From Methanopyrus kandleri AV19 (GTDB lineage Archaea; JAADCQ01; Methanopyri; Methanopyrales; Methanopyraceae), in NCBI RefSeq assembly GCF_000007185.1, contig NC_003551.1, positions 1,080,001-1,112,000 on the forward strand: DNA of 32,000 bases. Reading direction: 5' to 3'. The translations under genes and the position numbers were made by a program. How positions within the stretch are numbered: position 1 is the stretch's first letter; the number at the start of each line of letters is the position of its first letter. Positions 1,110 to 31,962 of this stretch are shown in pieces. The notes below the pieces were generated by a model. It was given only the letters and a program-made list of their open reading frames with translations. It had not been told where the DNA came from and made no database searches.

Positions 1110-2513
1110 TTGAGTGGATCCTCGGTGTACGGCCGCCCGGCGTCGATCGGAACCCTGATCACCCGAGTCGGCGAATACTGTTTCGGGGCGGGTGAGATGC
1201 TGCTGTTCTCAACCGCGATCCCGGCGGAAGTTAAGAGAGGACTCGGGGAGGCCGGGCTGCGATTCGGTACCGTCTTCGAGGTTGTCGGAGGTCTGGTCTT
1301 GCCGTACATCGCCGAGTTTAGCGAGGAATATCACGTGGTCGAAGGCTTGGCCCGGATCGATAAGGAGAAGGTGCGCAGTCAGGGGGCCGTGACCCCCGCG
1401 CTGGGAATCCCCCGAAAGAAGGTCCGAAATTACCCGCTGGAGCTCGCCCAGGTCACACTCAAGGTCAGGGATGTTCTGACCTACAAGGCGGCGGCCGCAT
1501 ACTTCGCGTGGATCGCGAGGGAGTTCGACGTCTCCGTGGCGTCGGCAGTCAGGGCGATCCTCGAGGATAGTGAGTTTCTCGAGGCCCTTGTCGAGATCCT
1601 ATGTCCGGTGAACCCGAAGGCGGCTGAGGTGCTCGCCGGGTTCCGGGGGAGGATGTGGAGAGATGAGGCTAGGTGGTTGAAGTTCGAGGAGATGGCCCGG
1701 AAGGCGCTTGAGCTCGCGGAGGAGCTCGGAGATAACAGGCTCCGAACCGCGGCCGAACTGATTCTGCGGGGCAAATCGAGCGGTCCTACGGTACCCGGCG
1801 CTCGTGGCGATCACGACGGCGTCTACGTCTACGACATCGGCAAGGTCCGCAATTTCCTCGTCGAACGGATGCTCAAGTACGGCGAAAGCTCGAGGAAGCA
1901 GCCTGACGAGGAGATCATTGAGGCACTGGTGACGGAGTACGGAGTGGACTTCGAGGACGTACACTACGCGATCGCCGTTCTCAGCGAAGGTAGGATCCCC
2001 GCAGGGCCGCTCCGTACCGACGCCAGGGTACTGCTGGACAACGTCGCCGGGTTTCCGGGGAAGGTGGAGCGTGACGTGCCGGCGCCTTGGATGAGGAAGT
2101 CGTACGGGGCCTGGTTCTCGGACCTACGTCGCCTCGTACCCGTGACCGAGGAGAATTTCAACGATGTGATGCGGGCTAAGGGGTACGGGATATCCCTCGA
2201 GGATGTCGAGGAGGACTCGGAGTGGTACCTCGGGAAGACCGTGGGTAAGGTCCTACTCGGAGAGGATGCGAAAGTGCCACCGGAGGCCAGGGAGATCACA
2301 CAGACCGAGAACGTCAAGTTCGTGAACGCGGCGCTGAGGCCTAGACACGCGTTGAGTCGAGAGGAGGTGGAAGAGATCCGGGAGGTGCTGGGGAGTGTGG
2401 AGACCGACGTTCCAGTACCGATAGAGGGTATCGTGGTGGAAAAGGCGTTGACGGAGTTCGGGAAGCTCCCCATGCCGGAAGATATCTCCGCTGCCATCTC
2501 CCGTGGGGATTAG
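1110..2513 (+). CDS. hypothetical acidic protein (467 aa; alternative start ATG 1197)
   Basis: Long ORF, E/D/R/L/V-rich and helical-looking. Antisense ORFs (1481-1774, 1599-1964, 1964-2497) are S/R/P-rich. The first start is only 20 nt from the divergent gene start at 1089, so ATG 1197 (MLLFSTAIP) is plausible. No family recognised. Confidence 0.65.
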   Translation: MSGSSVYGRPASIGTLITRVGEYCFGAGEMLLFSTAIPAEVKRGLGEAGLRFGTVFEVVGGLVLPYIAEFSEEYHVVEGLARIDKEKVRSQGAVTPALGIPRKKVRNYPLELAQVTLKVRDVLTYKAAAAYFAWIAREFDVSVASAVRAILEDSEFLEALVEILCPVNPKAAEVLAGFRGRMWRDEARWLKFEEMARKALELAEELGDNRLRTAAELILRGKSSGPTVPGARGDHDGVYVYDIGKVRNFLVERMLKYGESSRKQPDEEIIEALVTEYGVDFEDVHYAIAVLSEGRIPAGPLRTDARVLLDNVAGFPGKVERDVPAPWMRKSYGAWFSDLRRLVPVTEENFNDVMRAKGYGISLEDVEEDSEWYLGKTVGKVLLGEDAKVPPEAREITQTENVKFVNAALRPRHALSREEVEEIREVLGSVETDVPVPIEGIVVEKALTEFGKLPMPEDISAAISRGD

Positions 2514-2634
2514 AGACTCCGGTGACATCACACGAGGTCCCTCAAAACGTTTCGGATATTGTGACGATTCGAGCGTCGGAGGGTTCGGATGGTGAGGAAC
2601 GTCGGGCTACGTACGATCTTATATCATGAGCGAG

Positions 2635-4164
2635 CTAGCGACAGAACGGGTGTGACGGGCCCTCCCTGGAGCAGCGATGTCTCCGACCGAAGGGATTACG
2701 TCGCTTCCACCAGAGTGGGGCAGGCAGCACCGGCAGCCCACGTTTCGATTTCTGCTTTTTCAGCCCCTGAAACTCCCGTTCGAGTGACTCGAGCCGACGT
2801 TCGAGATCCTGTTGTCTCCGCGAGAGGTCCTCGAGACCCTGTTCCAGCCGATTGATCTCCCGCTCGAGCGATTCGACCCGACTCTGCTGTACCATCGAAC
2901 CCACCAGCTCGGCGTGCAGTGTCAGTATCTCCCGGTAGACAGTGCTGAGGGCTTTCCGCTCTTCGAGGAGGGACCAACGGGCCGAGCTCGGGTCCCAGTA
3001 CTCCAGAACGTTCTCGAGAAGTGCTTCGTTCCAAACCCGCTCCACGGCACGGTACAGGTCCTTTCGGATGGAATCATCGATGACACCGTTCACGGTGAGG
3101 TCCCAGAGGGCGGAGTCTAAGGCCCGCCACCGTGACATCGTGTCCAGCCACTCCCGCACGATCTTCGACTTGTCCGGGTACAGGTCGATGAGCTCCCACC
3201 AATGGTGGTAATCGGCCGCGTGTAAGATGCTGGAGTAATCGGGCTCCGGTAGTGCGACGAGCCCCAGATTGGTTCCCCCTGAGGATATCATGTTAACTAC
3301 CTCGCGAGGGTCGCTGAGTTCGAACGTTACCGTGACTCCCTGGTACTCGAAGTCGAAGGATCCATTCCCGACCTCCGAAAGGAAGTTCTCGAACTCCTGC
3401 CGGACGTCGGCGTCCGCGAGTTCCCATGGATGGATGAGTACCCATGGGGCAAGGTGTACGTCGCCGGTGACGTTTATGACACCGCTATCTATGAGGTTTC
3501 TCACGGCGTTCTGGAGGAGCTCTCGAACCGTCGTCCCACGATCCTCGGCCGCTTGCACCAGGTCCGAGACGTAGCTCAAGGCGGGTATGTAGTACAGTCG
3601 GTCCCCACGGACGTTGAAATACCCCACTAGCATATGTCTGGCTATGGGATCCAGTCGGTCCCATGTTGGATCGTAATCGGGATTGATCGCCGTGATGTCG
3701 GTGCCACAGACTATCACCCGCACCCCGAGTTTATCGCAGGCGTACAGGGTGTTGGCGTCGAACACCCACGAAGGGACGGATAGGACCTGGGCGACGTTGC
3801 TCCCCACTCGGTCCCTGAGGAATTGCAGGTTGAACTCGAGCTCCCAGTACTGAAGGCTGAGGGGAAGACCCCCTAAGGCGTGGGATGTCGAGTGTAGTCC
3901 GACCAGACTGATCGTGCCCCGCTCGGCGTACTCTCGGATCAAGTCCGTGATACCCGGCGCCGTCTCCTCACAGACGTTGTAGTGGAATACTGCGACTTTG
4001 ATGCCACGCTCTTCGCACCATGAGAGGAACTCCTTCAGTGCGGCGACGTGGTCCTGGGACCACGCGTCACTATCGAGGTAGGGGACTACGTGCACGTATA
4101 CGGTCGCGGCGGAAGCCGAAGGTGGCAGCGGCAGGATACCAATCAACACCAACGAAAGTAGCAC
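2635..4164 (-). CDS. secreted protein with NodB-like (polysaccharide deacetylase / glycoside-hydrolase-deacetylase fold) N-terminal region and C-terminal coiled coil
   Basis: N-terminal signal-like segment MLLSLVLIGILPLPPSASA. About 330 aa are paralogous to ORF 8392-10149 (VHVVPYLDSDAWSQDHVAALKEFLSWCEERGIKVAVFHY vs VHITVYNDSDAYSEDQVKAYEDFLTWCEENGVKVAVFHY; VLIHPWEL vs VLIHPWQL). DSD and HSTSH motifs resemble the NodB Asp plus His-His site. Heptad-like ESLEREINRLEQGLEDLSRRQQDLERRLESLEREF. Tail GLPVLPAPLWWKRR. Confidence 0.75.
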   Translation of the reverse strand: MLLSLVLIGILPLPPSASAATVYVHVVPYLDSDAWSQDHVAALKEFLSWCEERGIKVAVFHYNVCEETAPGITDLIREYAERGTISLVGLHSTSHALGGLPLSLQYWELEFNLQFLRDRVGSNVAQVLSVPSWVFDANTLYACDKLGVRVIVCGTDITAINPDYDPTWDRLDPIARHMLVGYFNVRGDRLYYIPALSYVSDLVQAAEDRGTTVRELLQNAVRNLIDSGVINVTGDVHLAPWVLIHPWELADADVRQEFENFLSEVGNGSFDFEYQGVTVTFELSDPREVVNMISSGGTNLGLVALPEPDYSSILHAADYHHWWELIDLYPDKSKIVREWLDTMSRWRALDSALWDLTVNGVIDDSIRKDLYRAVERVWNEALLENVLEYWDPSSARWSLLEERKALSTVYREILTLHAELVGSMVQQSRVESLEREINRLEQGLEDLSRRQQDLERRLESLEREFQGLKKQKSKRGLPVLPAPLWWKRRNPFGRRHRCSREGPSHPFCR

Positions 4165-6529: not shown

Positions 6530-8467
6530 TTAGCGGCGACGACGGCGTACGATCGGGATCACCGGTAAGATCGGAGCGTGACCGGTACCCTCCCGTAAGT
6601 GCGGCTTCTCCGCGCCGCCCAAGATCACGAATTTCTTGGGAAACAGCCGCCCCCGCTCGTCCACGGTCAGGTACACCTTCCTACCGTTCTGCAACGTGAC
6701 CTCGAGGGTGGTCGGGGTCACACGGTTCACGGACTTGACATTGAGGGGGAGCTTCACGGTACGGACGGTCCCGTCCTCGGTAGTCACTCGGAGGGTTCCG
6801 TCCTCGAACACGTCGATCAGGAACGACCTCCCGGCCGTGGTCAGTTCTACGGTGGCTATCCGGGCTTCCATTTCGGCCGACGTCGGTCGGCCCCGCTGTA
6901 GGGCGCTTTGTGTTTCCTCCAACCGTTCCCGTTCCTCGCTTCTCCCTCCGGTCCTTCCTCCGCTCCCCTTCTCCTCCACCACGTTCTCCTCAGCTCTCCC
7001 CTGGAGCTTCTCGGGCGGGAATACCCGGTCAGACGATGATGACTCGGTAGTGGGTTGGGTCGTCGGTCTACCCTCACGCTGCTCCTGGAGCCGGTTCGCC
7101 GACCGGATCGTCTGACCCCGCTGCTCCTCGGTAGCGGATCGCGCGCCGGACTGGGTATGGAATTCGCCCTCGGTCCTACCCTCCGCGCTCGACTGCGGGG
7201 AGTGGGGTTGATACCGTGGGAGCTTGACGGTCACGTCCGTCCCGGCGGTCGCGCTGAACGACGTGCCGGTGTCCGCATCCCGACAGTGTACGGTCACGAG
7301 AACCCTGTACGTGCCCTCTCGGCCCACCTCGAACGTTACCGACCCGCTCGGATCCGCGAGTGTTTTCCTGCCTACCACGTTACCACTCTCGTCGCAGAGG
7401 AAGATTTCCACACTGTCAACCTCGGCGCGGTCGACGTTCACGCGGTACTCGACACTCAGCGTCGCGCTTTCCGGCGTGGGTCGTGCGTCCACGTCCACCC
7501 TGACACTCGGTAAGACAACTGCTACCGCATCGGTGGTTAGCTTCGACACAACGGATTCCGTCACCGAGTCTATTGAACACTGTAGTGTCATGACGGCGTA
7601 GTACGAGCCACTTCTAGTTACCGTGAACGTTACTGAACCCGTCTTAGGCGGATTATTGACGACTTTCCGATCCATGAGATTGCCGTTCTCATCGTAGAGT
7701 GCTATCTCAAGTAGCTCCGGAGTGCAAGCTGTTGTATTTATCTCGTAGTAGGCACTCAGTACCGCGTTCTTAGGCGTCTTCTTAACAAGAGATAACGCAC
7801 CGTTCACACTCGCCCGCGGTATCTGAACGGTCACGCCGGTTTCGGTAGTGGTGCTGAACTGTGTACCGGTGTCGGCGTCCCGGCAACGTGCGGTTATAAG
7901 GACCTTATACGTACCGTCTTTATCCACATCGAACGTTACCGAGCCGCTCAGGTCCGAGACTTCCTTCTTCCCTACCACATAGCCATCCTCGTCGTACAGG
8001 ACCACCTCGACACCGTCCACCTCAGCGTGACTGGCGTCAACGTCGTAATCCACCCTCAACGTCGCGCCTTCCGGTCCGGGTTGCACGTCCGTGCTTGCCC
8101 GTATACGAACGCTCGGCAGTACGATCTCCATCACATCGGTGCTCAGCTCCGAGGCCACGGATTCGGTCGTCAGACCGCTCGAGCACTGCAGTACTAGGAC
8201 GGCGCGGTACGAGCCACTTCCCGTCACCTTGAACCTCACCGAGCCGGTCTCGGGCGGATCCTCGATCGTCTCCTGGCTCACGATCTCACCACTCTGATCG
8301 TAGAGGGTGATCACGAGCCGTTCCGGAGTGCAGGCTACCGTGTGCGTCTCGTACCGGACCTCCAGTGTGGCGCCTTCCGGAGTCTTCTCGATTAGGGATA
8401 GCGTGCCGCTGACACTCGCTCGCGGTACCGGATCGGAAGGCTCAGGTCGATCTGGAATTGGTCCCAT
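6530..8467 (-). CDS. surface protein with four beta-sandwich (Ig-like) modules, polar linker and C-terminal tail (645 aa); probably continuous with the upstream ORF
   Basis: aa 15-216 and 217-418 are a tandem duplication (PRASVSGTLSLIEKTPEGATLEVRYETHTVACTPE... vs PRASVNGALSLVKKTPKNAVLSAYYEINTTACTPE...). No signal peptide at its own N-terminus. R/E/Q/S/T-rich linker. Tail HAPILPVIPIVRRRRR. Confidence 0.75.
   Translation of the reverse strand: MGPIPDRPEPSDPVPRASVSGTLSLIEKTPEGATLEVRYETHTVACTPERLVITLYDQSGEIVSQETIEDPPETGSVRFKVTGSGSYRAVLVLQCSSGLTTESVASELSTDVMEIVLPSVRIRASTDVQPGPEGATLRVDYDVDASHAEVDGVEVVLYDEDGYVVGKKEVSDLSGSVTFDVDKDGTYKVLITARCRDADTGTQFSTTTETGVTVQIPRASVNGALSLVKKTPKNAVLSAYYEINTTACTPELLEIALYDENGNLMDRKVVNNPPKTGSVTFTVTRSGSYYAVMTLQCSIDSVTESVVSKLTTDAVAVVLPSVRVDVDARPTPESATLSVEYRVNVDRAEVDSVEIFLCDESGNVVGRKTLADPSGSVTFEVGREGTYRVLVTVHCRDADTGTSFSATAGTDVTVKLPRYQPHSPQSSAEGRTEGEFHTQSGARSATEEQRGQTIRSANRLQEQREGRPTTQPTTESSSSDRVFPPEKLQGRAEENVVEEKGSGGRTGGRSEERERLEETQSALQRGRPTSAEMEARIATVELTTAGRSFLIDVFEDGTLRVTTEDGTVRTVKLPLNVKSVNRVTPTTLEVTLQNGRKVYLTVDERGRLFPKKFVILGGAEKPHLREGTGHAPILPVIPIVRRRRR
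7214..8425. repeat. intragenic tandem duplication, 2 x 606 bp (2 x 202 codons)
   Basis: PRASV(S/N)G recurs at aa 15 and aa 217 of ORF 6530-8467, and module-by-module similarity runs through both copies (copy 1 = 7820-8425, copy 2 = 7214-7819). Each copy holds an A module (ACTPE...LQCS) and a B module (L(Y/C)DE(D/S)G..V(V)G(K/R)K...SGSVTF(D/E)V...GTY(K/R)VL(I/V)T..CRDADTGT). Confidence 0.85.
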
Positions 8468-10149
8468 AGTCGTCCCTGCACGTTTCCACTCAACACAACG
8501 TACACGGTGTCCGCTCGTCGGTCCTTCGGGAGGCTGATCGTGACACCGCTCGCGAGCTCGTCCAGCGTGAACGGGACCTCCGCGATCACATCCCCATTCT
8601 CGTCCTCGACGACGATCCTCCCGCCGGTGATATCGCTCAACCCGACGGAGGTGAACTCACCTCTCACCACGAGATCCGTCGGGTCGGCGCGGTCCAGCGT
8701 CACTTTCCCACGTACGACCCCGGGGGATGGACACCACCAGTTCCGGTCCAGGAACACGGCGGCTATCCCACCGTCGGAGTACTGGAACACCAGGACCCTG
8801 TGGTTATCATCCGCCGAAGTCGTGAGGAGCGAAGCCGAACCGTCGAGGTAGTCGCGTAGCAGCTCCAGTTCGGCCTTCCAGACCTCCAGGTACTGGATGA
8901 TCCCCTCGCTCTCGCACATGCAGCTCAGCTGAGCCTCGTTGACGGTCCTGAGCACGACGTCACGGACCAGCGGGTCCAGCTCGGTTCTCTTCAGCCTTTG
9001 CAGCCGCGGAGCGATCGACTTCAGTACGTCCATACCTTCCCGCCATAGTTTCACGATCTCCGGGTATTTTTTCTCCAACTCCTCCACCGTGCGCAGATCA
9101 CTCGCGTGCACCATGCTAGTCCAGTCTAAGTCGCTGATCGTGACATCGGGATGCCCGTAGGCGTCCGGGTTTTCCGCGATTTCACGCACTAGCTCGAGGC
9201 ACTCGGAAGGTCTTTCCAGCTCGAAATGCACTGGGATTACGCCGTACAAGGTGAAGTCGAGGCTCCCGCTCTTAACCCATCTGATGAACTCCTCGATCAG
9301 ATCGAGGCCGGTCCTGCCCGTGCTTCCCATCTCCTCGACCAGCTGCCACGGGTGGATCAGTACCCACAGTACGAGGTCCGCTTTTCCGTCGTTGTTCCCT
9401 TTGATCGCGCCCACGTTGAGCAACGTCTCAACGGCCCGTCGGAACGCCCCCTTAAGGCTCTCGAGGCCGTAGGGGCCTATGTCCTGCTCAACGTCGTCCA
9501 CGAGCTCTCCGAAATCGATCACCGGGCAGACGTACACCACGTCTCCATCGATGTCCAACTTCTTGACGATGAGCACGTCCGCGAGGTAGTCCATATCTTC
9601 GCCCTGCCACGAGACTACTTTCTCCGGGTTGAACTCCCAAGTCCGGTACCCGGAAACGATCCACTTGATCCCGAGTTCGCGGCAGACGTGCACGAAGTTC
9701 TCGTCGATGACCCACTCGATGGACGGTGAGACCACGTCCTTACGGAGGCCCGGCTCTAGGTTCTGTTCTTTGAAGAACTCCCACGAGTACTCGATCTGCA
9801 ATCGCTCGATCTCTGGTGGGAGTCCGGCAATAGAGTGAGCGGTACCGTGGGATCCGACGAATTCGACGGATTTGCCCAGGTGTTCCCGGATTACGGCCGT
9901 GATCCCGGGCGCTTCGAACTCACATTCCGGATAGTGAAACACCGCCACCTTCACGCCGTTCTCCTCACACCAAGTCAGGAAATCCTCGTAAGCCTTGACT
10001 TGATCCTCACTGTACGCGTCGCTATCGTTGTACACCGTAATATGAACTGTAATTGACTGAGGTAAGGTCATTGTTAACAAAGCTGCATGAGTTGGAGCTG
10101 CTAATGTTAACAGGAGAGCCACAAGAACGACAATGGAAGATCGCGTCAT
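8392..10149 (-). CDS. secreted NodB-like domain protein, paralogue of 2635-4164, ending in a beta-sandwich module (585 aa)
   Basis: Signal-like MTRSSIVVLVALLLTLAAPTHA. Paralogy to the 509-aa ORF, with DSD and HGTAH motifs. The C-terminal RIVVEDENGDVIAEVPFTLDELASGVTISLPKDRRADTVYVVLSG resembles the B modules of the downstream ORF. It overlaps that ORF by 76 nt in another frame. Confidence 0.8.
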   Translation of the reverse strand: MTRSSIVVLVALLLTLAAPTHAALLTMTLPQSITVHITVYNDSDAYSEDQVKAYEDFLTWCEENGVKVAVFHYPECEFEAPGITAVIREHLGKSVEFVGSHGTAHSIAGLPPEIERLQIEYSWEFFKEQNLEPGLRKDVVSPSIEWVIDENFVHVCRELGIKWIVSGYRTWEFNPEKVVSWQGEDMDYLADVLIVKKLDIDGDVVYVCPVIDFGELVDDVEQDIGPYGLESLKGAFRRAVETLLNVGAIKGNNDGKADLVLWVLIHPWQLVEEMGSTGRTGLDLIEEFIRWVKSGSLDFTLYGVIPVHFELERPSECLELVREIAENPDAYGHPDVTISDLDWTSMVHASDLRTVEELEKKYPEIVKLWREGMDVLKSIAPRLQRLKRTELDPLVRDVVLRTVNEAQLSCMCESEGIIQYLEVWKAELELLRDYLDGSASLLTTSADDNHRVLVFQYSDGGIAAVFLDRNWWCPSPGVVRGKVTLDRADPTDLVVRGEFTSVGLSDITGGRIVVEDENGDVIAEVPFTLDELASGVTISLPKDRRADTVYVVLSGNVQGRLWDQFQIDLSLPIRYRERVSAARYP

Positions 10150-12363: not shown

Positions 12364-13926
12364 TCAGGGTTTGAGCGACGAGATCCTGATCTCATCCCCT
12401 CCCGGTATCTGCATAGCAGTCTCGAGATACCAATCCACGAGCTCGGCCGCAATGTCCACGTCTTCGGGCTCGACATCGTCGGAGAGACGCATGCGAGCGT
12501 GAGCCTTCGCGAGTCTTTCTACGGACTCGAGCTGTCTCCTAGTCACGGGGAGCGTCGGGAGACCCATCCCGAGGCGCTCCTCGACTTCCTCGCGTCGGGT
12601 CTCGTACCAGTGCTCTAAGCGCTTCCTCGCTTCCTCTGTGAGCTCGGGCTTCGGATGCTCGCGGATCGCGTAGAGGAGATACCTCCGGAGCAGCGTGTAG
12701 CTCGGTACTTCGGTGTCTTGCTCCTCCGGCTCCCCGGGTCGTGGATCGACCCCGAGGAAGGCGATGAGGTCGAAGTGGGAGAGGAAGTCCTGGTCCAGGT
12801 CGATCCGGGCGATCGGAGGATCACTCGGCCACTGCTCACCAGGGTTGATGGCGGCTAGGACGGCGCATCGGGCGTTCAGCGCGATCCCGTCGACGGTTAC
12901 CGTACCCTTGTCCATGGCCTCCATGAGGGCCCACCGATGGGGCTCCGGGGCCCCTTCGAGGTGGTCCACCGCTAGGATACCGCCGTCCGCGAGCACGGCC
13001 GCACCGGCTCTAAGGGCCCAACCCCTGTCCTCCTTCAGGACCGCGGTCAGGTCCGTGAGCTCCGTGCGTCGGAGGTCTACGTACACACCCCGGGGTGCGA
13101 GGTGATCCAGAACGTGGTGTAGGATCTCGGAGCACACGACCGGGTAACCCGCGAGCAGTACGTGCAGACGCTCGCTGTTCTTTCCGACGCATGAGAAGAG
13201 CTGGAGGGCGAGCATCTTACCGACTTCCTCGGCCCCTGGAAGCGGGGCGATCGCACGGGCGAACGTCGTTAGCGGGTCTTTATCCGCGAGCTCGCGGAAC
13301 TCCTCCAGCTCCGCGGGGTCGGGGTGTACCTCCGGGATGGGGTCCTTCTTGTGAACTTCCAGCGCGTCCAACGTCGCCGATCGAACTATCCCGAGGATCT
13401 CGACCCGGAGTCCGGGTCCGAGGCGGTGGCCGTGGAGCCGCACGGCCACCAGCTCCGAGCCCGTGTCGACGATCGCATGTTCCAACCTCTCGGCACCTCG
13501 GACCTCGCGGACTACCCCCTCGATCGAGATGAGGGCTCCGTCCATGGGCCGTATTCTCTCTACCCTCCGGAACCGATGGGGGAGACCTCGGAACCTCACG
13601 CGTGGTTCGACATCCGGGGCCACCGTTCTGACGAGCTCGCGGAGCGCCGGTTCGACCAGCCTGGCATGGGTCGCAATCCAGGATGCTAGATCGGAGTCCA
13701 GCTCGCGGAGGTCTAACACTACCGGCTTACCGGAGGTGACGCGCCTCAGCGAGCGCTGGAACGACTCGGTTCGAACTATTTCGATTAGAACCCGGGTAGG
13801 GAGGCCGAACCTACTCGCGACTTCCCCAATCCTAGCGTCCGGATCATAGGTCGTGGCTCGGGGTGTGGTGCCCAATCGGAACACACCCTCAGAACGTCCT
13901 CGGGATTGCGCCCACGTATCCGACAC
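12364..13926 (-). CDS. mcm: MCM (minichromosome maintenance) family AAA+ homologue with degenerate catalytic motifs
   Basis: MCM-box region is recognisable, but each motif is substituted:
- LHVLLAGYPVVCSEILHHV in place of GDPGxxKS (Walker A).
- DGGILAVDHLEG in place of the D-E Walker B.
- NARCAVLAAINP is sensor-1-like.
- LSHFDL in place of the SRFDL Arg finger.
The N-terminal ~230 aa contain no Cys, so there is no Zn finger. Confidence 0.9.
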   Translation of the reverse strand: MSDTWAQSRGRSEGVFRLGTTPRATTYDPDARIGEVASRFGLPTRVLIEIVRTESFQRSLRRVTSGKPVVLDLRELDSDLASWIATHARLVEPALRELVRTVAPDVEPRVRFRGLPHRFRRVERIRPMDGALISIEGVVREVRGAERLEHAIVDTGSELVAVRLHGHRLGPGLRVEILGIVRSATLDALEVHKKDPIPEVHPDPAELEEFRELADKDPLTTFARAIAPLPGAEEVGKMLALQLFSCVGKNSERLHVLLAGYPVVCSEILHHVLDHLAPRGVYVDLRRTELTDLTAVLKEDRGWALRAGAAVLADGGILAVDHLEGAPEPHRWALMEAMDKGTVTVDGIALNARCAVLAAINPGEQWPSDPPIARIDLDQDFLSHFDLIAFLGVDPRPGEPEEQDTEVPSYTLLRRYLLYAIREHPKPELTEEARKRLEHWYETRREEVEERLGMGLPTLPVTRRQLESVERLAKAHARMRLSDDVEPEDVDIAAELVDWYLETAMQIPGGDEIRISSLKP

Positions 13927-16288: not shown

Positions 16289-17245
16289 TTGGAGGTGCAC
16301 TACGAACTACCCCTGGGTGGGGCACACCTGGCGTATCGGGCGGCGGAGGCCGGACATGACGTAGTCCTGTGCGACCCCTCGTTCGACATCTCCGAGGAGT
16401 CGATGGAGCGGTTGGAGTCGGCCGGTGTGGAACTCGTGACGGACGATACCGCAGGTGTGGAGCACGGTGAGATCCAGATACTGTTCACGCCGTTCGGTCA
16501 TACGGTGAAGATCGCCCGAGAGTTGCTCGACGACGTCCGTGAGGGGGCCGTTCTCTGCACGACGTGCACGTGCCCACCGATCGCCCTGTACCACGGCCTG
16601 GAGGGGGAGCTTCGCACGAAAAGGGAGGACGTCGGTGTCTCCTCCTTCCACCCGGCCGGGATCCCGGGGGCGGAGACACAGGACCTGATCCTGGTGGCGG
16701 ACGCGCGGTCCGAGGAGTCGGGGATCGAGCTGGCGTCGGAGGAACAGGTCGAGCGGTGCGTAAACCTCGCGGAGGACATGGGGTACGACGTTTACGTCCT
16801 GGATCCCGAGCTTATCTCATCCATCGGTGACATGTCCGTCGTCCTTACCGTGCGTATAGTCCAGGCGATCTGTAACTACTTCTCGGTAGCGAGGATCTGC
16901 GGTGCACCCATCGAGATGATCGAGGAACAGGTGGAAGAGGTGCTGTCGACCATGGCGTACCTAGTCGGGAGGTACGGGCTGGACGCGTTCGATCGGATGG
17001 ATGGGAAGCTGCTGCTGAGGTCGCTGCGGAACATGGCGCTCACGGAGGACGTCGAGCGGGTCGTGGACTTCTTCGAGCGGTGCTACGTGGACTTGCTGAG
17101 CGGTGACCGGGAGAGCATGCGAGAACTGAGCTCCATGATGGTGCCTCCGGACAAGCTGGTGGACCGCGTCCGGGAGATCGTGGGAGAGGCGCCGGTCCAG
17201 TACGCCCGGCGGAGGTTCTTCGAGGAGCGGCGATGGGGCTCGTGA
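16289..17245 (+). CDS. Hmd-family paralogue (HmdII/HmdIII-type; H2-forming methylene-H4MPT dehydrogenase-related); N-terminal strand lies in another frame (16228-16359)
   Basis: Matches remembered Hmd-family blocks: HGEIQILFTPFG, AVLCTTCTCPPIALY (Cys at the position of the Fe-ligating Cys in THACTIP), SSFHPAGIPG, SSIGDMSVVLTVRIVQAICNYFSVARICGAPIEMIEEQ. The expected beta1/Gly-loop (VKVTVYGCGDENMMVKLIEPLGG) is encoded from GTG 16228 in a different frame. Confidence 0.85.
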   Translation: MEVHYELPLGGAHLAYRAAEAGHDVVLCDPSFDISEESMERLESAGVELVTDDTAGVEHGEIQILFTPFGHTVKIARELLDDVREGAVLCTTCTCPPIALYHGLEGELRTKREDVGVSSFHPAGIPGAETQDLILVADARSEESGIELASEEQVERCVNLAEDMGYDVYVLDPELISSIGDMSVVLTVRIVQAICNYFSVARICGAPIEMIEEQVEEVLSTMAYLVGRYGLDAFDRMDGKLLLRSLRNMALTEDVERVVDFFERCYVDLLSGDRESMRELSSMMVPPDKLVDRVREIVGEAPVQYARRRFFEERRWGS

Positions 17246-19189: not shown

Positions 19190-20172
19190 TCAGGCCACCA
19201 GGAGCTTCAGCAGCCTCCCCATGGTACTGCCGGGCCTCTTGAGGAGCGCCGTCGGGGGGACGGCGGCCTTCCCCAGTCGATCGTGGTCGGGCGAGGTGAT
19301 GTACACCTCCTCCACGTCGGTGCGTGAGAACAACTCTGTCAGCCTGTTCCGCTCGCGCTCCGGGTCTATCCCGTACTCGAACACGTACACCCAGTCCCCG
19401 AGCCTCTCCAGCGCTCTCAGCTTCGCCTCGAAGACGTTCCCGGGCGTGGGCCTCCCCTCCTCGTCCGCGACCACGTTCTCGACGACCACCCCGAACCCGT
19501 AGCGGTCCTTGAGCTCGGCGAGCCTCCGGTCGAAGACGGCGTCCCGGCGTTCACGTAGACTCTCAGGCCGAGGTCTCGCGCCGTCCGGAGGAGCTCCTCC
19601 AGCGCCCGGTAGGACCGACCCTTCAGCTCGTCGACGTCCCCGCCGGTTTCACGGTGGAACCACTCGACGTACCAGTCCCGCGACCAGGGATCCACGACGT
19701 CGATGAACACGCCCTCGTAGCCGAGGTCCCGTAACTCCTTGAGCTTAGCGCGGAGGGCGTCGAGCCAGGCGCGCTCCCAGAACCGGACGGCGTGGTCACC
19801 TGGCCACTCCGGATCGGGGCGTCCCAGGAGCCTTTTGCTCCGCGTCAGACGGTACAGGTCCCTCTGGTGCTCGCCGACCGTGGCGAGCGATAGGTACGCG
19901 ACGGGCTTTACGCCGTGCTCACGCAGGGTCCGGAGCTCGTCCTCGGTCCAGGGCCGGTCACCGGGACCGCAGTAGGGATCGACGACGAGCGTGCGCGGAC
20001 GCTTCTCGAGGATCACCCGAAGGTTGACGTCCTGCCAGTACGTCGCGAGCGGCACGCCGTGATCGATCACTGTAAAGGCCAAGAAGATCGTCAGGAGCGG
20101 CTTCAGCGAGGTGCATTCCCCCGGCGGTTCCGTGTGGACGGGTTCGAAGCTGTGTGCGGGTCCGACGGACAC
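19190..20172 (-). pseudogene. GH114-like (endo-alpha-1,4-polygalactosaminidase / TM1410-like) extracellular glycosidase, split by one frameshift near 19541-19546
   Basis: ORF 19417-20172 contains YWQDV, VVDPY, KPVAYLSLATVGEHQRDLY, EWPGDHAVRFWERAWLDAL and GYEGVFIDVVDPWS, the (beta/alpha)8 GH114-type pattern. Its tail then turns into S/T/R/G junk. The frame of ORF 19190-19489 reads DAVFDRRLAELKDRYGFGVVVENVVADEEG upstream of its own start. The junction is VYVNAG|DAVF at a GGG run. Confidence 0.65.
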
Positions 20173-20386: not shown

Positions 20387-20938
20387 CTAGCTCAGCTCTT
20401 CGACGACCTTGAGCACCTTCTCCGCGTCCCTGACGTTGCTCTCGGCGATCCCGCGGTGGGCCTCGATCTCCCCGAGGCGGACGTCCTCCCGGCGTGCGAC
20501 GCGAAGTATGCACTCCCTGAGCTCCTCGGGTACGTCCGACGCCTTCTCTATCCCCTTCAGGATCTTCACGACGTCCGCGTGCGGTCCACCCGTTAGCCTG
20601 CCCTTGAGGTAAGCCAGGTAGATCAAGGCCTGGCGGACGGATTCGGCCGATAGGAGCAGCTTGAGCCGCGCGCCGTCCAGCCTATCGGCCAGATCCAAGG
20701 CCTCCTTGGCCAGTCTCAGGACCCGAATGGCGCGGGTCATCGAGACTCCCGTGAACCTCGTTAACCTCGACGTTACCGTCCTTGACGATCGCGTACACGT
20801 CCATACACGGTCTGCGTAGGGACTCGAACTCGGGGTCGCCGGGGAGACGTTCACCGGGTCCTCCCAGGAGAGGCCGCCCCTCTCCAGGGTCTCCTCGACG
20901 AGTTCCTCCACCCTGCGGCTCGGTACCTCGTCGCTCAC
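20387..20938 (-). CDS. HEPN-domain protein (HEPN core = 20387-20740) with an uncertain 66-codon N-terminal region
   Basis: From internal ATG 20740: MTRAIRVLRLAKEALDLADRLDGARLKLLLSAESVRQALIYLAYLKGRLTGGPHADVVKIL... This is a helical domain of about 118 aa with an R-x5-H motif (RLTGGPH). Codons 33-66 of the long ORF are S/T/R-rich, while another frame reads GDPEFESLRRPCMDVYAIVKDGNVEVNEVHGS. Confidence 0.6.
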   Translation of the reverse strand: MSDEVPSRRVEELVEETLERGGLSWEDPVNVSPATPSSSPYADRVWTCTRSSRTVTSRLTRFTGVSMTRAIRVLRLAKEALDLADRLDGARLKLLLSAESVRQALIYLAYLKGRLTGGPHADVVKILKGIEKASDVPEELRECILRVARREDVRLGEIEAHRGIAESNVRDAEKVLKVVEELS

Positions 20939-21060
20939 TACGACGGCAGGCCCAGCGCCGGCAAAGCTATCTTACCGATGCAGAGGTTGATGGTTTCGCT
21001 GAATCACTTTCAAAATCTGGACGGAAGGAAGTAATGCCCGAACGGATCGACTCGCTCCCA

Positions 21061-21891
21061 CTAGGAAGCCTCCTTCCAGTCGTTATCCCATATCCCAGTC
21101 CTCAGACTCTCCTCCAACCTTGCCGCACGGATCCGTCCAGCTAGGTCGCATTCCACGAAATCTTCAGCCCACTCCAACATTTCCTGGATCTGGCTAATGA
21201 TTCGATCAAGTTGCACCCGCTGCAGCCCGTACCGGTTGACGTCAACCAGGAACGCCATCCGTATCTCGTCATCCCCGTCGCGCACGTAGTTGGCCGTTTG
21301 GACCCTGCGCTTGTCCACTATCTCATGCCGTCTTGAGAGTATGCACACCAGGTGCTCGCCCACCTTATCCGCTGGTACTCCAGCAAAGTCGCCGATAATC
21401 ACTGGGTGGCGCTTCAGCCGGCCCATGAACGACTGTAGCTGCTTCTTAGCGTTAAACAGCAGCCTCCTCACTGGTTCCACCTCCGACCTGTAGTCCGGCA
21501 GCACCGTGACGTGCAGCGCGTACGGAACTTCCTCACCCAGCCGAATCGCCGTGGCCGCACCGATCGCTCCACCCAGTCCCCAGACCAGCACCGGCACCCG
21601 ATCGGCTCGGTACTCCAGCTTCACCACTTCGACAAACTTCTCAGACAGCTGCTTCAGCGCCTCGCTTTTCTCTGCATCCTTCATCGCCGTCTCGTAGTCA
21701 CGGTGGGCACCGCTAGGACTTCCGTAGGCCACCTCGACTCGGCTGGTTTGAAGGCCCAGCTTCTTTGCTAGCTCCTCACCGCTCTGGATGCCGTCGGGCG
21801 TGTCGACCAACACTACGCTGGAAGCTTCAAACGCTGAAGCCACGTACGGGGCCACCCGACACCCGAACGTCCCAGCACCGACCACGATCAA
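21061..21891 (-). CDS. divergent FtsZ/tubulin-superfamily-like protein (276 aa, TTG start) with a degenerate signature loop
   Basis: By-eye alignment to archaeal FtsZ:
- LIVVGAGTFGCR ~ ITVVGCGGAGNN (T1).
- VVLVDTPDG ~ TVAINTDAQ.
- YGSPSGAHRDYETAMKDAEKS ~ GLGAGGNPKIGEEAAKES (T3/H3).
- VLVWGLGGAIGAATAIRLGEE ~ [21 protein letters not shown] (T4).
- HVTVLPDYRSEVEPVRRLLFNAKKQLQSF ~ AVVTLPFVMEGKVRMKNAMEGLERL.
- VIIGDF ~ VVIPNE.
The C-terminal domain is short. Confidence 0.6.
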   Translation of the reverse strand: MIVVGAGTFGCRVAPYVASAFEASSVVLVDTPDGIQSGEELAKKLGLQTSRVEVAYGSPSGAHRDYETAMKDAEKSEALKQLSEKFVEVVKLEYRADRVPVLVWGLGGAIGAATAIRLGEEVPYALHVTVLPDYRSEVEPVRRLLFNAKKQLQSFMGRLKRHPVIIGDFAGVPADKVGEHLVCILSRRHEIVDKRRVQTANYVRDGDDEIRMAFLVDVNRYGLQRVQLDRIISQIQEMLEWAEDFVECDLAGRIRAARLEESLRTGIWDNDWKEAS

Positions 21892-22190
21892 CCTTCGCCG
21901 CTCCCCAGATAACTCCCCAAGGTGGAGAACGCGCGTCGTTACTCGCCGTCGTCAACGTGTACGATTAAGCGTGAATAAACTTTGGTCAGTTTACTAGCGC
22001 CGGCATACCAGCTCTGGTTAATGTAGGTAACGTACTTAGGGTTGACATCGACGAGTTCCGAACCCATCCAACACAGTATATGCTGTCAGTATGAGTTCGC
22101 TCTAACCTCAAATGATCGTATTGCCATCGTTCGACAATAGCACTGAACTGTATATGAATAGTACTACATCGATGTAGGTGTTAATCAACA

Positions 22191-22478
22191 TTGTTCATCG
22201 GAGTACTCCTCGCACCGACCGTGAACTTGCTTCTGCTCATAAGTTTGGTTAAGCTACTTCATGTCAAGTGCTCGCTTCAAGGAGCGGAGCTGATCGCCCG
22301 GATAGCTCCGATGATGACGCTGGGGGTAGTCCCCGCGGTCACCGTCGAGGCGCGTAGTCTGCTCACCAGGATACCACCGACGGCGACCGTAGAAAGGATC
22401 CTGACCGTCCTCAACGTGCCAGCTGTGTTCGTGTACGCCTTCTCCTTCTTCATCCTTGTCCACTGCTACCTATCGTGA
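22191..22478 (+). CDS. possible small hydrophobic protein (95 aa)
   Basis: The plus-strand ORF has mostly G/C in third codon positions and hydrophobic N- and C-terminal segments (MFIGVLLAPTVNLLLLISLV..., VPAVFVYAFSFFILVHCYL). The overlapping minus ORF 22254-22463 has mixed third positions. No homology recognised; coding status is uncertain. Confidence 0.3.
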   Translation: MFIGVLLAPTVNLLLLISLVKLLHVKCSLQGAELIARIAPMMTLGVVPAVTVEARSLLTRIPPTATVERILTVLNVPAVFVYAFSFFILVHCYLS

Positions 22479-22595
22479 AACCGCGCTGCGGCGGTCCTTG
22501 ACCGGTTCGATCGGTCGGGCCGTGGGATACTACCCTGTTCCGGTACGGTCCCCTCACAGCGTTCGGCGTGCCGAGGGTACGAGGACCGTGCGGGA

Positions 22596-23690
22596 TCATC
22601 GAGGGCGTCGGAGCAGCGGGAGGACGCTCGCCAGTGGGATCGCACCGGAGATGTAGAACACGGCGCTGAGCGAGACGTCCGCCAGCAGCCCGGGCAGGGA
22701 CCCGGTGAGCCTCCCGAGGGACATGATCGAGCCCCACCATCCCATCCCGAGGCCGCGTCTCTCCCCGGAGACCTCCGCCACCAGCTTGAGCGATGACGGT
22801 TGGGCCAGCGAGTACCCGACCCCTCCCACGCACAGCAGGACCACGGCGACGGGTACGCTCTCCACGAAGGGCAGCACCAGCACGCCCAGGGCGGCGAGCA
22901 CGCACCCCAGCGCGGCCAGGACGGTCGGGCTGTACCGGTCGGCCAGCCACCCGCACGGCGCCTGCAGGGTCACCGCCACGGCGTTGCGGATCGCGAGTAC
23001 CAGTCCGATCTGTGCCGGGTCCGCGCCGAGCTTCTTCAGCAGCAGCGGGACGAACGACTCGATCGTTGGTTGCACGGCCGCGGTGGCGAACGCGGGGAGC
23101 GAGGCCCGGAAGAGCTCCCGGTCGACCTCTAGCGATCTCTTCAACACCTCGAGGGGTGAGACCTTCTCCCGGGACGTCCGGACGTCCGGGAGCGATCCCG
23201 CCAGCGGTACGGCGAGCAGTGCCGGTAACGCGAGGACGGCGAAGGCCCAGGGTCCGACGCTCCGGTAGAGGTAGCCCCCCAGGGGCGGAGCCAGGACCAT
23301 CGGAAGCTGGGTGACCGCGTTGAAGACGCCCAGGGAGCGACCGCTGTCCGCGACGGTGGACAGGAGCGGCGGCCAGAGCGCGCCCATACCGAGACCCAGG
23401 GAAACTCGGCTGGCCAGCAGCGTCCCGGGGTGCGGGACGAGAACCAGCAGGTCGGACAGCGCGTACCCTAGGGCCCCGAGCGGCGCGAGCCTCCTGGGAC
23501 CGTACGCGTCCGTCAGGGCCCCTCCGACGGGCCTGGCTAGGAGCTGCGTCACGTTGTGTACGAGGTTCATGACGCCGACGAACGAGCGGGGGTAGCCCGC
23601 GTCCACCACGTAGAGCGGGAGGATCGGCAGGACTGATGTCAGGGACACCGCGCACGCGATGCCCACGACGTGTGCGATCAACGGCCTCAC
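22596..23690 (-). CDS. major facilitator superfamily (MFS) transporter (364 aa)
   Basis: About 10-12 hydrophobic helices. MFS-type loop motifs GALTDAYGPRRL and WLADRYSPTVL (G-x-L-x-D-R/x-x-G-R-R-like) occur in both halves. The overlapping 401-aa ORF (22450-23655) is R/G/P-rich and off-frame. Confidence 0.9.
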   Translation of the reverse strand: MRPLIAHVVGIACAVSLTSVLPILPLYVVDAGYPRSFVGVMNLVHNVTQLLARPVGGALTDAYGPRRLAPLGALGYALSDLLVLVPHPGTLLASRVSLGLGMGALWPPLLSTVADSGRSLGVFNAVTQLPMVLAPPLGGYLYRSVGPWAFAVLALPALLAVPLAGSLPDVRTSREKVSPLEVLKRSLEVDRELFRASLPAFATAAVQPTIESFVPLLLKKLGADPAQIGLVLAIRNAVAVTLQAPCGWLADRYSPTVLAALGCVLAALGVLVLPFVESVPVAVVLLCVGGVGYSLAQPSSLKLVAEVSGERRGLGMGWWGSIMSLGRLTGSLPGLLADVSLSAVFYISGAIPLASVLPLLRRPR

Positions 23691-31365: not shown

Positions 31366-31962
31366 GATTCTTACAGTGATTACAGATTAATTGCTAGCGA
31401 GGGAAGAGACTACGGCGAGAGGACCAAATAGATGGCGATTCAGGGGGCTAAAGAAGGTCACTAGGTTTCATTACCCGTATTATTACGGGTTAATTGCGAG
31501 ATGCAGGCACAATGAGTTTGCGGACAAAGACGATAATGTATTGTTAAGAGTGTATACGTTTCATTACCCGTATTATCACGGGTTAATTGCGAGTATGTTA
31601 GCTGGTCGAGGAAATTGTGGCGGTGTTAAACTCCGGAGAAACACGTCGAACCCGTTTCATTACCCGTATTATTACGGGTTAATTGCGAGCTCGCGATGCG
31701 TGTGCGGACCGCACCGTGCCCGCGTGCTATGACGGATCTCCTCTTCGCGACGTTTCATTACCCGTATTATTACGGGTTAATTGCGAGACATGAGGTCCAG
31801 TTCCAGAAGCCTGAGCGGAAGCGCAAGGCGCTCGACCCGGAGTTTCATTACCCGTATTATTACGGGTTAATTGCGAGGGTCAAGGAAGTCTTCCCTTCAC
31901 TGAAGGAAAAACTAGAGGATGACGAGGTTTCATTACCCGTATTATTACGAGTTAATTGCGAG
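31366..31962. CRISPR. CRISPR array: 6 intact 36-nt repeats plus 1 degenerate terminal repeat; spacers 49-63 nt; may continue past the right edge
   Basis: Repeat GTTTCATTACCCGTATTATTACGGGTTAATTGCGAG occurs at 31465, 31558 (T>C variant), 31654, 31752, 31842 and 31927 (G>A variant). An internal 7-bp stem pairs ACCCGTA with TACGGGT. A degenerate 36-nt copy, gattcttacagtgattacagattaattgctagcgag, lies at 31366-31401. Spacers are 63, 57, 60, 62, 54 and 49 nt. The reverse complement ends in ...GGGTAATGAAAC, which favours minus-strand transcription. Confidence 0.95.

Follow-up and report, generated by a model that had tools for sequence, protein, structure and literature searches.

A 32,000-nucleotide stretch of Methanopyrus kandleri AV19 (NC_003551.1, positions 1,080,001 to 1,112,000; referred to here, at its full length, as the window) contains a gene for a short protein that resembles an FtsZ from which much of the C-terminal part is missing. 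This gene raises two questions: whether its product truly belongs to the FtsZ/tubulin superfamily and, if so, what such a small protein might do. The product of the open reading frame (ORF) is 100% identical to M. kandleri AAM02339.1/WP_011019494.1/UniRef100_Q8TWB0 (Q8TWB0). The database names for Q8TWB0 differ, with NCBI listing it as hypothetical and UniRef as “FtsZ GTPase involved in cell division.” Hence, the FtsZ-like nature of Q8TWB0 is not new, since it is already in the UniRef name; a search of the literature turned up no paper on Q8TWB0 or its family. The closest homolog is 59% identical and is encoded at locus L001 (L-numbers denote loci with a family gene, P-numbers denote family proteins, and loci joined by a slash are one lineage). 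The ratio of nonsynonymous to synonymous substitution rates (dN/dS) for this pair is ~0.20, with dS, at 1.56, being near saturation. Based on this ratio, we concluded that the ORF is a constrained coding gene. The account that we favor, and to which we give an even chance, is that the ORF encodes a minimal member of the FtsZ/tubulin superfamily, that its family was ancestrally part of a DNA partition cassette, and that the M. kandleri copy is an orphan that lacks the ribbon-helix-helix (RHH) gene, the repeats, and the docking motif of its relatives.

Scans of the protein with Pfam-A, NCBIfam, PHROGs, and PADLOC identified no significant family, and neither PF00091 (Tubulin) nor PF13809 (Tubulin_2) matched any of the 12 family members scanned. 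Families such as that of Q8TWB0 escape FtsZ/tubulin surveys that are based on PF00091. Searches of PDB sequences with phmmer and hmmsearch gave no FtsZ match; the sole tubulin-superfamily protein matched using HMMER was RepX/TubZ (4ei7), and this match was weak (E, 0.22). We used hhalign to compare a profile from a 16-sequence alignment of the family with one from a 9-sequence alignment of FtsZ, built from annotated genome and plasmid records. The two profiles aligned over 116 columns (Prob, 91.6; E, 8.2e-7), with T1 to T5 in register. The family consensus AGGCGC was paired with GGGGGN of FtsZ at T1, VGSxxD/VDTPDG with NTDxQ at S2, GSPTGAHRD with GLGAGANPE at T3, GLGGAVGLA with GMGGGTGTG at T4, and VLPxPxEPE with VTxPFxFEG at S5/T5. 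Controls with reversed sequences scored 21 to 22, compared to 54 for the real pair. The FtsZ profile was needed for this result; with E. coli FtsZ alone as the target, there was no meaningful alignment (Prob, 0.4). The original prediction, made from the letters of the window, was that the N-terminal part follows the FtsZ GTPase domain block for block, and the register was recovered over T1, the NTD-like strand, T3, T4, and T5.

Two AlphaFold2 models of the window protein (predicted local distance difference test [pLDDT] scores, 78.8 and 80.1; predicted template modeling [pTM] scores, 0.81 and 0.82) have the order S1-H1-S2-H2-S3-T3-H3-S4-T4-H4-S5-H5-S6-H6-H7, which is the order found in FtsZ. 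For the first model, the top Foldseek matches in the PDB were TubZ (4ei7) and M. jannaschii FtsZ, and a second TubZ structure (3v3t) was also among the best structural matches. For the second model, ~38 of the best 50 chains were FtsZ, TubZ, or tubulin, with TM-scores (TMq) of 0.44 to 0.50 and a root mean square deviation (rmsd) of ~4.1 to 4.7 over ~200 columns. In BFVD, a library of viral structures, the nine top-ranked matches took in all of the proteins named as phage tubulin, PhuZ, or FtsZ-like, which account for five of the nine, with the remaining four being unnamed. No Rossmann protein was among these matches; Rossmann proteins ranked far lower in the list.

The likeness to FtsZ could instead reflect a shared fold only, in which case the protein would be a generic Rossmann nucleotide- or cofactor-binding protein, such as a dehydrogenase or a ThiF-like enzyme. 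In keeping with this explanation, the N-terminal 38 residues matched malate dehydrogenase when a 3-sequence profile was used against PDB sequences (E, 0.0016), weak Pfam and NCBIfam matches of the window protein point to FAD/NAD-binding families, and structures of short-chain dehydrogenases/reductases (SDRs) and FabL were among the Foldseek matches, with E-values (~1e-3 to 1e-4) similar to those of the FtsZ-type chains. However, the malate dehydrogenase match is limited to strand 1 and its GxGxxG loop and became weaker with a deeper family profile, whereas a second glycine-rich loop after strand 4, a T3-like loop, and the T5 proline are all in the FtsZ register. Moreover, the SDR and FabL chains had lower TM-scores (0.29 to 0.40) and larger rmsd values than the FtsZ, TubZ, and tubulin chains, and in BFVD the Rossmann proteins were well below the tubulin-like matches. 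We consider a generic Rossmann protein very improbable. Taken together, the profile alignment and the models indicate that the window protein is, as first proposed, a short and divergent FtsZ/tubulin-like protein, and very probably a true, albeit extremely divergent, member of the superfamily.

The protein departs from FtsZ most clearly in two places. The GGGTG[ST]G signature is absent: the window protein reads GGAIGAA (within GLGGAIGAA), its closest homologs read GGATGA, and the family reads GGA[VTI]G[AL]A, with the position of the third glycine invariantly Ala. A degenerate signature loop was part of the original prediction, as was truncation of the C-terminal domain. In the models, H7 is followed by ~40 ordered residues, which form a three-stranded sheet and one helix, and then by a disordered tail, so only a rudiment of the C-terminal (GTPase-activating) domain of ~100 residues is present; core family members are shorter still. 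The suggestion that TANYVRDGDDE is a T7-like loop held in part. The sequence lies directly after H7, its N201 is conserved in nearly all family members, and a greedy, low-confidence hhalign alignment places N201 on the T7 Asn of FtsZ. In contrast, the acidic residues are not conserved and differ even in the two closest homologs (P0002 and P0003), with some core family members reading NxA[RK]xD at this position.

When three close sequences were searched exhaustively with HMMER against 1.84 billion representatives, only 11 proteins were identified. Word-indexed searching of 5.8 billion clusters, together with scans of GTDB genomes and JGI metagenomes, yielded a few more members. All are from hydrothermal samples, and the few with a taxon label are from metagenome-assembled genomes (MAGs) named Methanopyri, Methanobacteriota, Euryarchaeota, or “Crenarchaeota.” Members are 230 to 291 amino acids long and share 23 to 60% identity; the family is patchy and fast evolving, and one MAG has two copies. 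The invariant residues (M. kandleri numbering) are G7, G10, G57, G61, D65, G105, G108, A109, G111, and P132, all of which are retained in the M. kandleri protein, and the hallmark motif of the family, at T3, is G[SD][PD][TR]G[AG][HF]RD. The family is tiny, with members identified only in Methanopyri-like hydrothermal archaea, and we located no description of it.

In seven lineages (L015/L025, L017, L018/L023/L027/L028, L019/L029, L020, L021/L030, and L022/L032), the family gene is followed 13 to 78 bp downstream, on the same strand, by a small RHH gene. The downstream products form a single RHH family, as judged by pairwise BLASTP (E-values down to 1e-18) and hmmsearch (E, 1e-26 to 1e-38). The member in L017 exceeds the Pfam gathering scores for RHH_1 and RHH_9, and others match RHH_3 and RHH_5. 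At the loci of the M. kandleri subgroup, L001 and L004, the partner is larger (152 and 156 amino acids, respectively), with an in-register alignment to the RHH domain over its first 37 residues (hhalign E, 5.6e-4; Prob, 30). A search of 5.8 billion proteins for homologs of the 152-amino-acid partner in L001 returned only the protein itself.

Arrays of 11-bp direct repeats lie directly upstream of the family gene in four to five lineages. The L019/L029 array has ~9 copies (positions 3835 to 3934, just 5′ of the TTTTAATA box), with a lag-11 autocorrelation of 0.70 to 0.73, and that of L022/L032 has ~7 copies, with a lag-11 autocorrelation of 0.64 to 0.75; in both cases this value is the maximum for the locus. 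The array in L021/L030, with two triplets of an 11-bp unit ending in TCCAT, is also clear. The arrays in L018/L028 (TGAC at 11-bp spacing) and L017 (3 copies) are weak, and none was detected upstream of the family gene in the window, L001, L004, L014, or L016. Also upstream of the cassette in L021 (positions 1140 to 3013), and likewise in L030, is a 1.9-kb noncoding stretch packed with repeats, namely inverted arms of up to 119 nucleotides, direct repeats of 47 to 63 nucleotides, and G-rich arrays with an 11-bp period. This stretch may be a replication origin or another cis element.

In most family members, the FtsZ-like gene and the RHH gene form a compact pair in which the FtsZ-like gene comes first, and the two genes behave as a unit. 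Between L023 and L027, 88% nucleotide identity is confined to an interval that begins at the start codon of the FtsZ-like gene and ends ~40 bp past the stop codon of the RHH gene, and the flanks are unrelated. Across lineages, the two cassette genes are almost the only genes in common, and the flanking genes vary. In almost all family members, an acidic linker leads into a short hydrophobic end (DPWSLL, DPLDFL, VLDLL, LDLL, FTDII, SFFDL, KDFFL, and others). This terminal docking-type motif is present in all 9 partner-linked lineages, and of the 3 solo lineages, 2 have lost it (hypergeometric P, ~0.045), namely M. kandleri, whose protein ends in WKEAS, and P0008, which ends in KRIGV. Read-through of the TAG stop codon of the window gene would add a sequence ending in DPFGHYFL, similar to the family tail motif; we rejected this as a coincidence, as the closest homolog stops at the same position.

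The arrangement in the relatives resembles that of two known types of partition system. In parC-parM-parR, a repeat array over the promoter is followed by an NTPase gene and an RHH gene. In TubZRC, the motor has a tubulin fold and its flexible tail binds the DNA-bound adaptor. TubZ partition motors are known from Firmicute plasmids and phages. Because the array-motor-RHH layout is that of parC-parM-parR, and the tubulin-fold motor and tail-adaptor logic are those of TubZRC, we propose DNA partition as the probable ancestral role of the family. The RHH protein would coat the repeat array, which would serve as a centromere overlapping the promoter; the FtsZ/TubZ-like protein would form nucleotide-dependent filaments; and the acidic tail, with its hydrophobic end, would dock the filament onto the RHH-DNA complex such that filament dynamics move the DNA. 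More tentatively, and with somewhat less than an even chance, this would be a new kind of segregation machinery and the first based on a tubulin in Archaea, combining a motor of ~250 amino acids without a C-terminal domain, a tail that docks onto a ParR-like RHH protein, and 11-bp centromeres, with the M. kandleri gene as a domesticated orphan. Archaeal DNA segregation is described in the literature searched as relying on ParA-type systems.

The likeness to ParMRC of plasmid R1 is specific to the RHH-linked relatives, in which an array with an 11-bp period over the promoter region, a motor gene, and a small RHH adaptor gene occur together. This layout is found in L019/L029, L022/L032, and L021/L030, weakly in L018/L028 and L017, and not in the window. 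Unlike ParM, the motor has a tubulin/FtsZ fold rather than an actin fold, and the likeness of the RHH protein to ParR that we observed is one of layout. With TubZRC (pBtoxis, the RepX system of pXO1, and Clostridium phage c-st), the window protein shares a divergent tubulin/FtsZ fold, TubZ being among its best structural matches, and a flexible C-terminal tail, which is a candidate adaptor-binding element; the relatives, but not the window copy, also have a small DNA-binding adaptor gene and iterated repeats. The differences from TubZRC are substantial. The window protein is ~100 residues shorter, with a C-terminal domain that is almost absent, a degenerate signature, and no Pfam Tubulin match; the adaptor of the relatives is an RHH protein encoded downstream, whereas TubR is a winged helix-turn-helix protein encoded upstream; and the hosts are archaeal, with a plasmid or virus location not established and the window copy having neither adaptor nor repeats. 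The superfamily has further divergent branches in prokaryotes, including CetZ, artubulin, PhuZ, and the FtsZl1/FtsZl2 families (Tubulin_2), the last of which were reportedly described by Makarova and Koonin in 2010. Phage tubulins and PhuZ are at the top of the BFVD matches, but the window protein differs from all of these branches in being much shorter, in having other conserved neighbors in its family, and in matching neither Pfam Tubulin nor Tubulin_2. At the family level, the combination of a minimal FtsZ/TubZ-like protein, an RHH protein, and 11-bp repeats appears to be undescribed and would be a variant of known partition systems. If the combination of a tubulin/FtsZ fold, a ParR-style RHH protein, and 11-bp repeats is as proposed, partition modules have been assembled more than once from interchangeable parts, and a very small, thermostable FtsZ-like protein without a C-terminal domain would bear on the minimal requirements for filament formation.

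Several observations weigh against a partition role. Clear repeat arrays are present in some lineages only, and a promoter-adjacent array could be no more than an operator for autoregulation. The degenerate T4 loop, the unconserved acidic residues at T7, and the near absence of the C-terminal domain make filament formation with nucleotide hydrolysis uncertain, and the Foldseek E-values on which the fold assignment partly depends are modest (1e-4 to 1e-5), with SDR-type Rossmann proteins scoring nearby. A scan of IMG/VR for the family gave no match; the neighbors of the cassette are almost all ORFans by Pfam and PHROGs, with no hallmark genes among them; the ends of four complete short contigs do not overlap, and no circular contig was found; and for one RHH-linked copy, a 23S rRNA gene is 1.5 kb away. 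Thus, the guess in the original prediction that the protein belongs to a mobile-element partition system fits the RHH partner and 11-bp arrays of the relatives, but a mobile location is not established and the window copy has neither feature. The lack of an RHH partner, repeat array, and terminal tail motif makes the function of the window copy itself the least certain part of the account. This copy could have a derived, partner-independent role or could be a retained relic; for the window, the result is a conserved orphan gene whose present role is uncertain.

The main rival explanation is that the family is a lineage-specific FtsZ paralog involved in cell division or cell shape, with the RHH protein being a transcription regulator like CdrS and the repeats being its operators. 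Cotranscription of an RHH gene with ftsZ2 is known and is widely conserved in archaea (CdrS, Euryarchaeota), which provides a precedent in cdrS-ftsZ2 (PMC7439475; PMC9871819). The family shares with archaeal FtsZ1/FtsZ2 and cdrS-ftsZ2 a homologous GTPase domain (by hhalign), an acidic linker with a short C-terminal peptide (the likeness of the hydrophobic end to the FtsZ C-terminal peptide being of low confidence), and, in the relatives, an adjacent RHH gene (PMC7439475). Some copies are also chromosomal: the L014 gene has MCR_C, topoisomerase, and dCTP deaminase genes around it, and the L015 copy is beside a 23S rRNA gene. However, the gene order is reversed, with the FtsZ-like gene preceding the RHH gene rather than ftsZ2 following cdrS, and 7 to 9 repeats of 11 bp exceed the need of a simple operator. 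In addition, FtsZ2 is full-length and canonical, and division FtsZs keep the C-terminal domain, which is nearly absent from the window protein, and the T7 residues (NxDxxD), which are not evident in it apart from N201, together with GGGTGTG where it has GGAIGAA. The narrow and patchy distribution, rapid divergence, duplication within one MAG, and unrelated flanks of the cassette also argue against a division paralog, which we consider unlikely. A rather improbable alternative is another autoregulated module, such as a toxin-antitoxin-like or defense pair, in which the RHH protein would act as the repressor or antitoxin of an FtsZ-like effector, which might, for example, be directed against the FtsZ of the host or of a rival. 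That the pair is compact and mobile, includes an RHH gene, and sits in variable, ORFan-rich regions would suit such a module, and the window copy adjoins a HEPN-like gene, with a CRISPR array 10 kb away. On the other hand, PADLOC had no match for the proteins, RHH antitoxins are usually encoded first in their operons, long 11-bp arrays are typical of centromeres rather than of toxin-antitoxin operators, and solo copies are under purifying selection despite having no putative antitoxin.

The HEPN-like gene itself prompted a further proposal, that the FtsZ-like protein and the HEPN protein encoded downstream form one functional system. The two genes are adjacent on the same strand in the window, and a HEPN homolog occurs within 1.3 kb of the family gene in L001. 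This homolog (L001:10123-10494) is 57% identical to the window HEPN-like protein over the C-terminal 115 residues of the latter. The first 66 codons of the 183-amino-acid ORF (positions 20741 to 20938) encode an S/T/P-rich segment that has no counterpart in the L001 homolog, and the gene most likely starts at M67, near position 20740. The description of the downstream neighbor as a HEPN protein on the same strand was correct as far as strand and likeness are concerned, but both proteins score below the Pfam HEPN cutoff of 22 bits (window, 15.3 bits; E, 0.022; L001, 18.3 bits; E, 0.0027), and 320 bp separate the two window genes. The R-x6-H motif reads RLGEIEAH in the window copy, and its His is replaced by Ser in the L001 homolog. 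Neither PDB sequences nor PADLOC gave a match to the HEPN-like protein, and no PADLOC defense model matched either member of the pair. In L001, the homolog and the family gene are on opposite strands and are separated by three genes, and no HEPN homolog was present at any other family locus examined. The neighborhood survey therefore largely refuted the proposed linkage, and we regard a joint system as barely credible. We concluded that the HEPN-like gene is an incidental neighbor of the FtsZ-like gene and not a conserved partner.

The orphan state of the window gene, which on the partition account would be derived, is evident from its surroundings (Table 1). We tried the first 66 residues of the 183-amino-acid ORF as a remnant of the RHH partner and rejected them, as neither hhalign against the RHH profile nor tblastn gave a significant result.

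Table 1. Features of the FtsZ-like gene, its protein, and adjacent DNA, in window positions
Feature	Position	Strand	Description
HEPN-like gene	20387..20740	-	~117 amino acids, from M67 of the 183-amino-acid ORF (20387-20938)
Gap at the position of the partner gene in relatives	20741..21060	-	320 bp; no partner gene or recognizable remnant (three-frame translation, tblastn)
FtsZ-like gene	21061..21891	-	276-amino-acid ORF, TTG start
Disordered acidic C-terminal tail	21064..21159	-	Residues 245-276, ending DNDWKEAS; pLDDT <50; tail alignment
Post-H7 loop at T7 position	21265..21297	-	Residues 199-209, TANYVRDGDDE; AlphaFold2 and family alignment
S5/T5 region	21475..21501	-	Residues 131-139, LPDYRSEVE; hhalign; family VLPxPxEPE, FtsZ TxPFxFEG; P132 invariant
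T4/tubulin signature position	21553..21579	-	Residues 105-113, GLGGAIGAA; FtsZ GMGGGTGTG; G105, G108, A109, and G111 invariant
T3-like loop	21697..21723	-	Residues 57-65, GSPSGAHRD; hhalign to FtsZ GLGAGANPE; G57, G61, and D65 invariant, R64 nearly so
T1-like glycine loop	21856..21879	-	Residues 5-12, GAGTFGCR; hhalign to FtsZ GVGGGGGN; family consensus AGGCGC; G7 and G10 invariant
Upstream spacer	21892..22595	-	704 bp, 54% GC; 46.6% GC at 21892-22200; no 11-bp array
MFS transporter gene	22596..23690	-	Upstream, same strand; Pfam MFS_1, E 3.8e-45

The original prediction also placed the gene in a foreign islet of low GC content, on the basis of hand counts of 55 to 57% GC, compared to 70 to 77% for the MCM and MFS genes. 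The AT-rich spacer and the high GC content of the MFS gene (70.4%) were as described. However, the FtsZ-like gene has a GC content of 59.4% (71.8% at third codon positions) and the MCM gene one of 64.2%, and the hand counts therefore fail. The gene is at the 19th percentile in GC content among equal-sized segments, with the window as a whole having 62.4% GC, and other ORFan genes in the window have a similar GC content. There is no tRNA in the window and no clear island boundary, so the islet was not upheld. A drop in GC content at the end of the window is due to a CRISPR array (31465-31962, continuing to the window end) with at least six 36-nucleotide repeats matching Rfam CRISPR-DR11. Within the AT-rich spacer, positions 22191 to 22478 on the forward strand contain a strongly hydrophobic ORF of 95 amino acids, divergent from the FtsZ-like gene, which may encode a small membrane protein or may be noncoding.

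Among the relatives, the cassette neighbors that are not ORFans include PCNA (L020), a metallo-beta-lactamase (MBL)/Apyc1-like protein (L018), and MCM with the Hjc resolvase (L016). The MBL-fold gene lies directly upstream of the cassette (L018:3269-3919 and L023:4984-5640), with the PCNA gene in the same position in L020; the MBL-fold gene has precomputed Pfam matches to Lactamase_B and Anti-Pycsar_Apyc1 and weak PADLOC matches to RTasMBL and LmuA. An Hjc resolvase gene is also near the family gene in L001. The solo family gene P0008 is preceded, at a distance of 118 bp, by a tRNA-Val gene (L014:5807-5883). A tRNA-Cys gene (L024:5687-5763) follows the P0012 cassette at a distance of 2.5 kb, and 1.5 kb separates this cassette from a 23S rRNA gene.

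Other genes of the window have counterparts at family loci. An ortholog of the MFS gene (48% identity by tblastn; L014:7795-8910) also adjoins the family gene in a Methanopyri MAG. The M. kandleri and L014 family genes are ~29% identical and differ in orientation; the shared neighbor could be a conserved neighborhood or a coincidence. The window encodes a short archaeal MCM paralog of 520 amino acids (12364-13926, reverse strand; Pfam Mcm-like_N, Mcm2-like_OB_arc, MCM, and MCM_lid), and the MCM of L016, located 2.6 kb from the family gene together with the Hjc resolvase, is distant from it (25% identity). Two large ORFans of the window (8392-10149 and 2635-4164, both on the reverse strand) are paralogs of each other with no Pfam match. 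A 989-amino-acid ORF beside the cassette in L027 (813-3782, reverse strand), also with no Pfam match, is 27 to 30% identical to them. The region is flanked by an HMD-like paralog (H2-forming methylene-H4MPT dehydrogenase family; 16289-17245, forward strand) and by an MJ1477/TM1410-type GH114-like gene (19417-20172, reverse strand).

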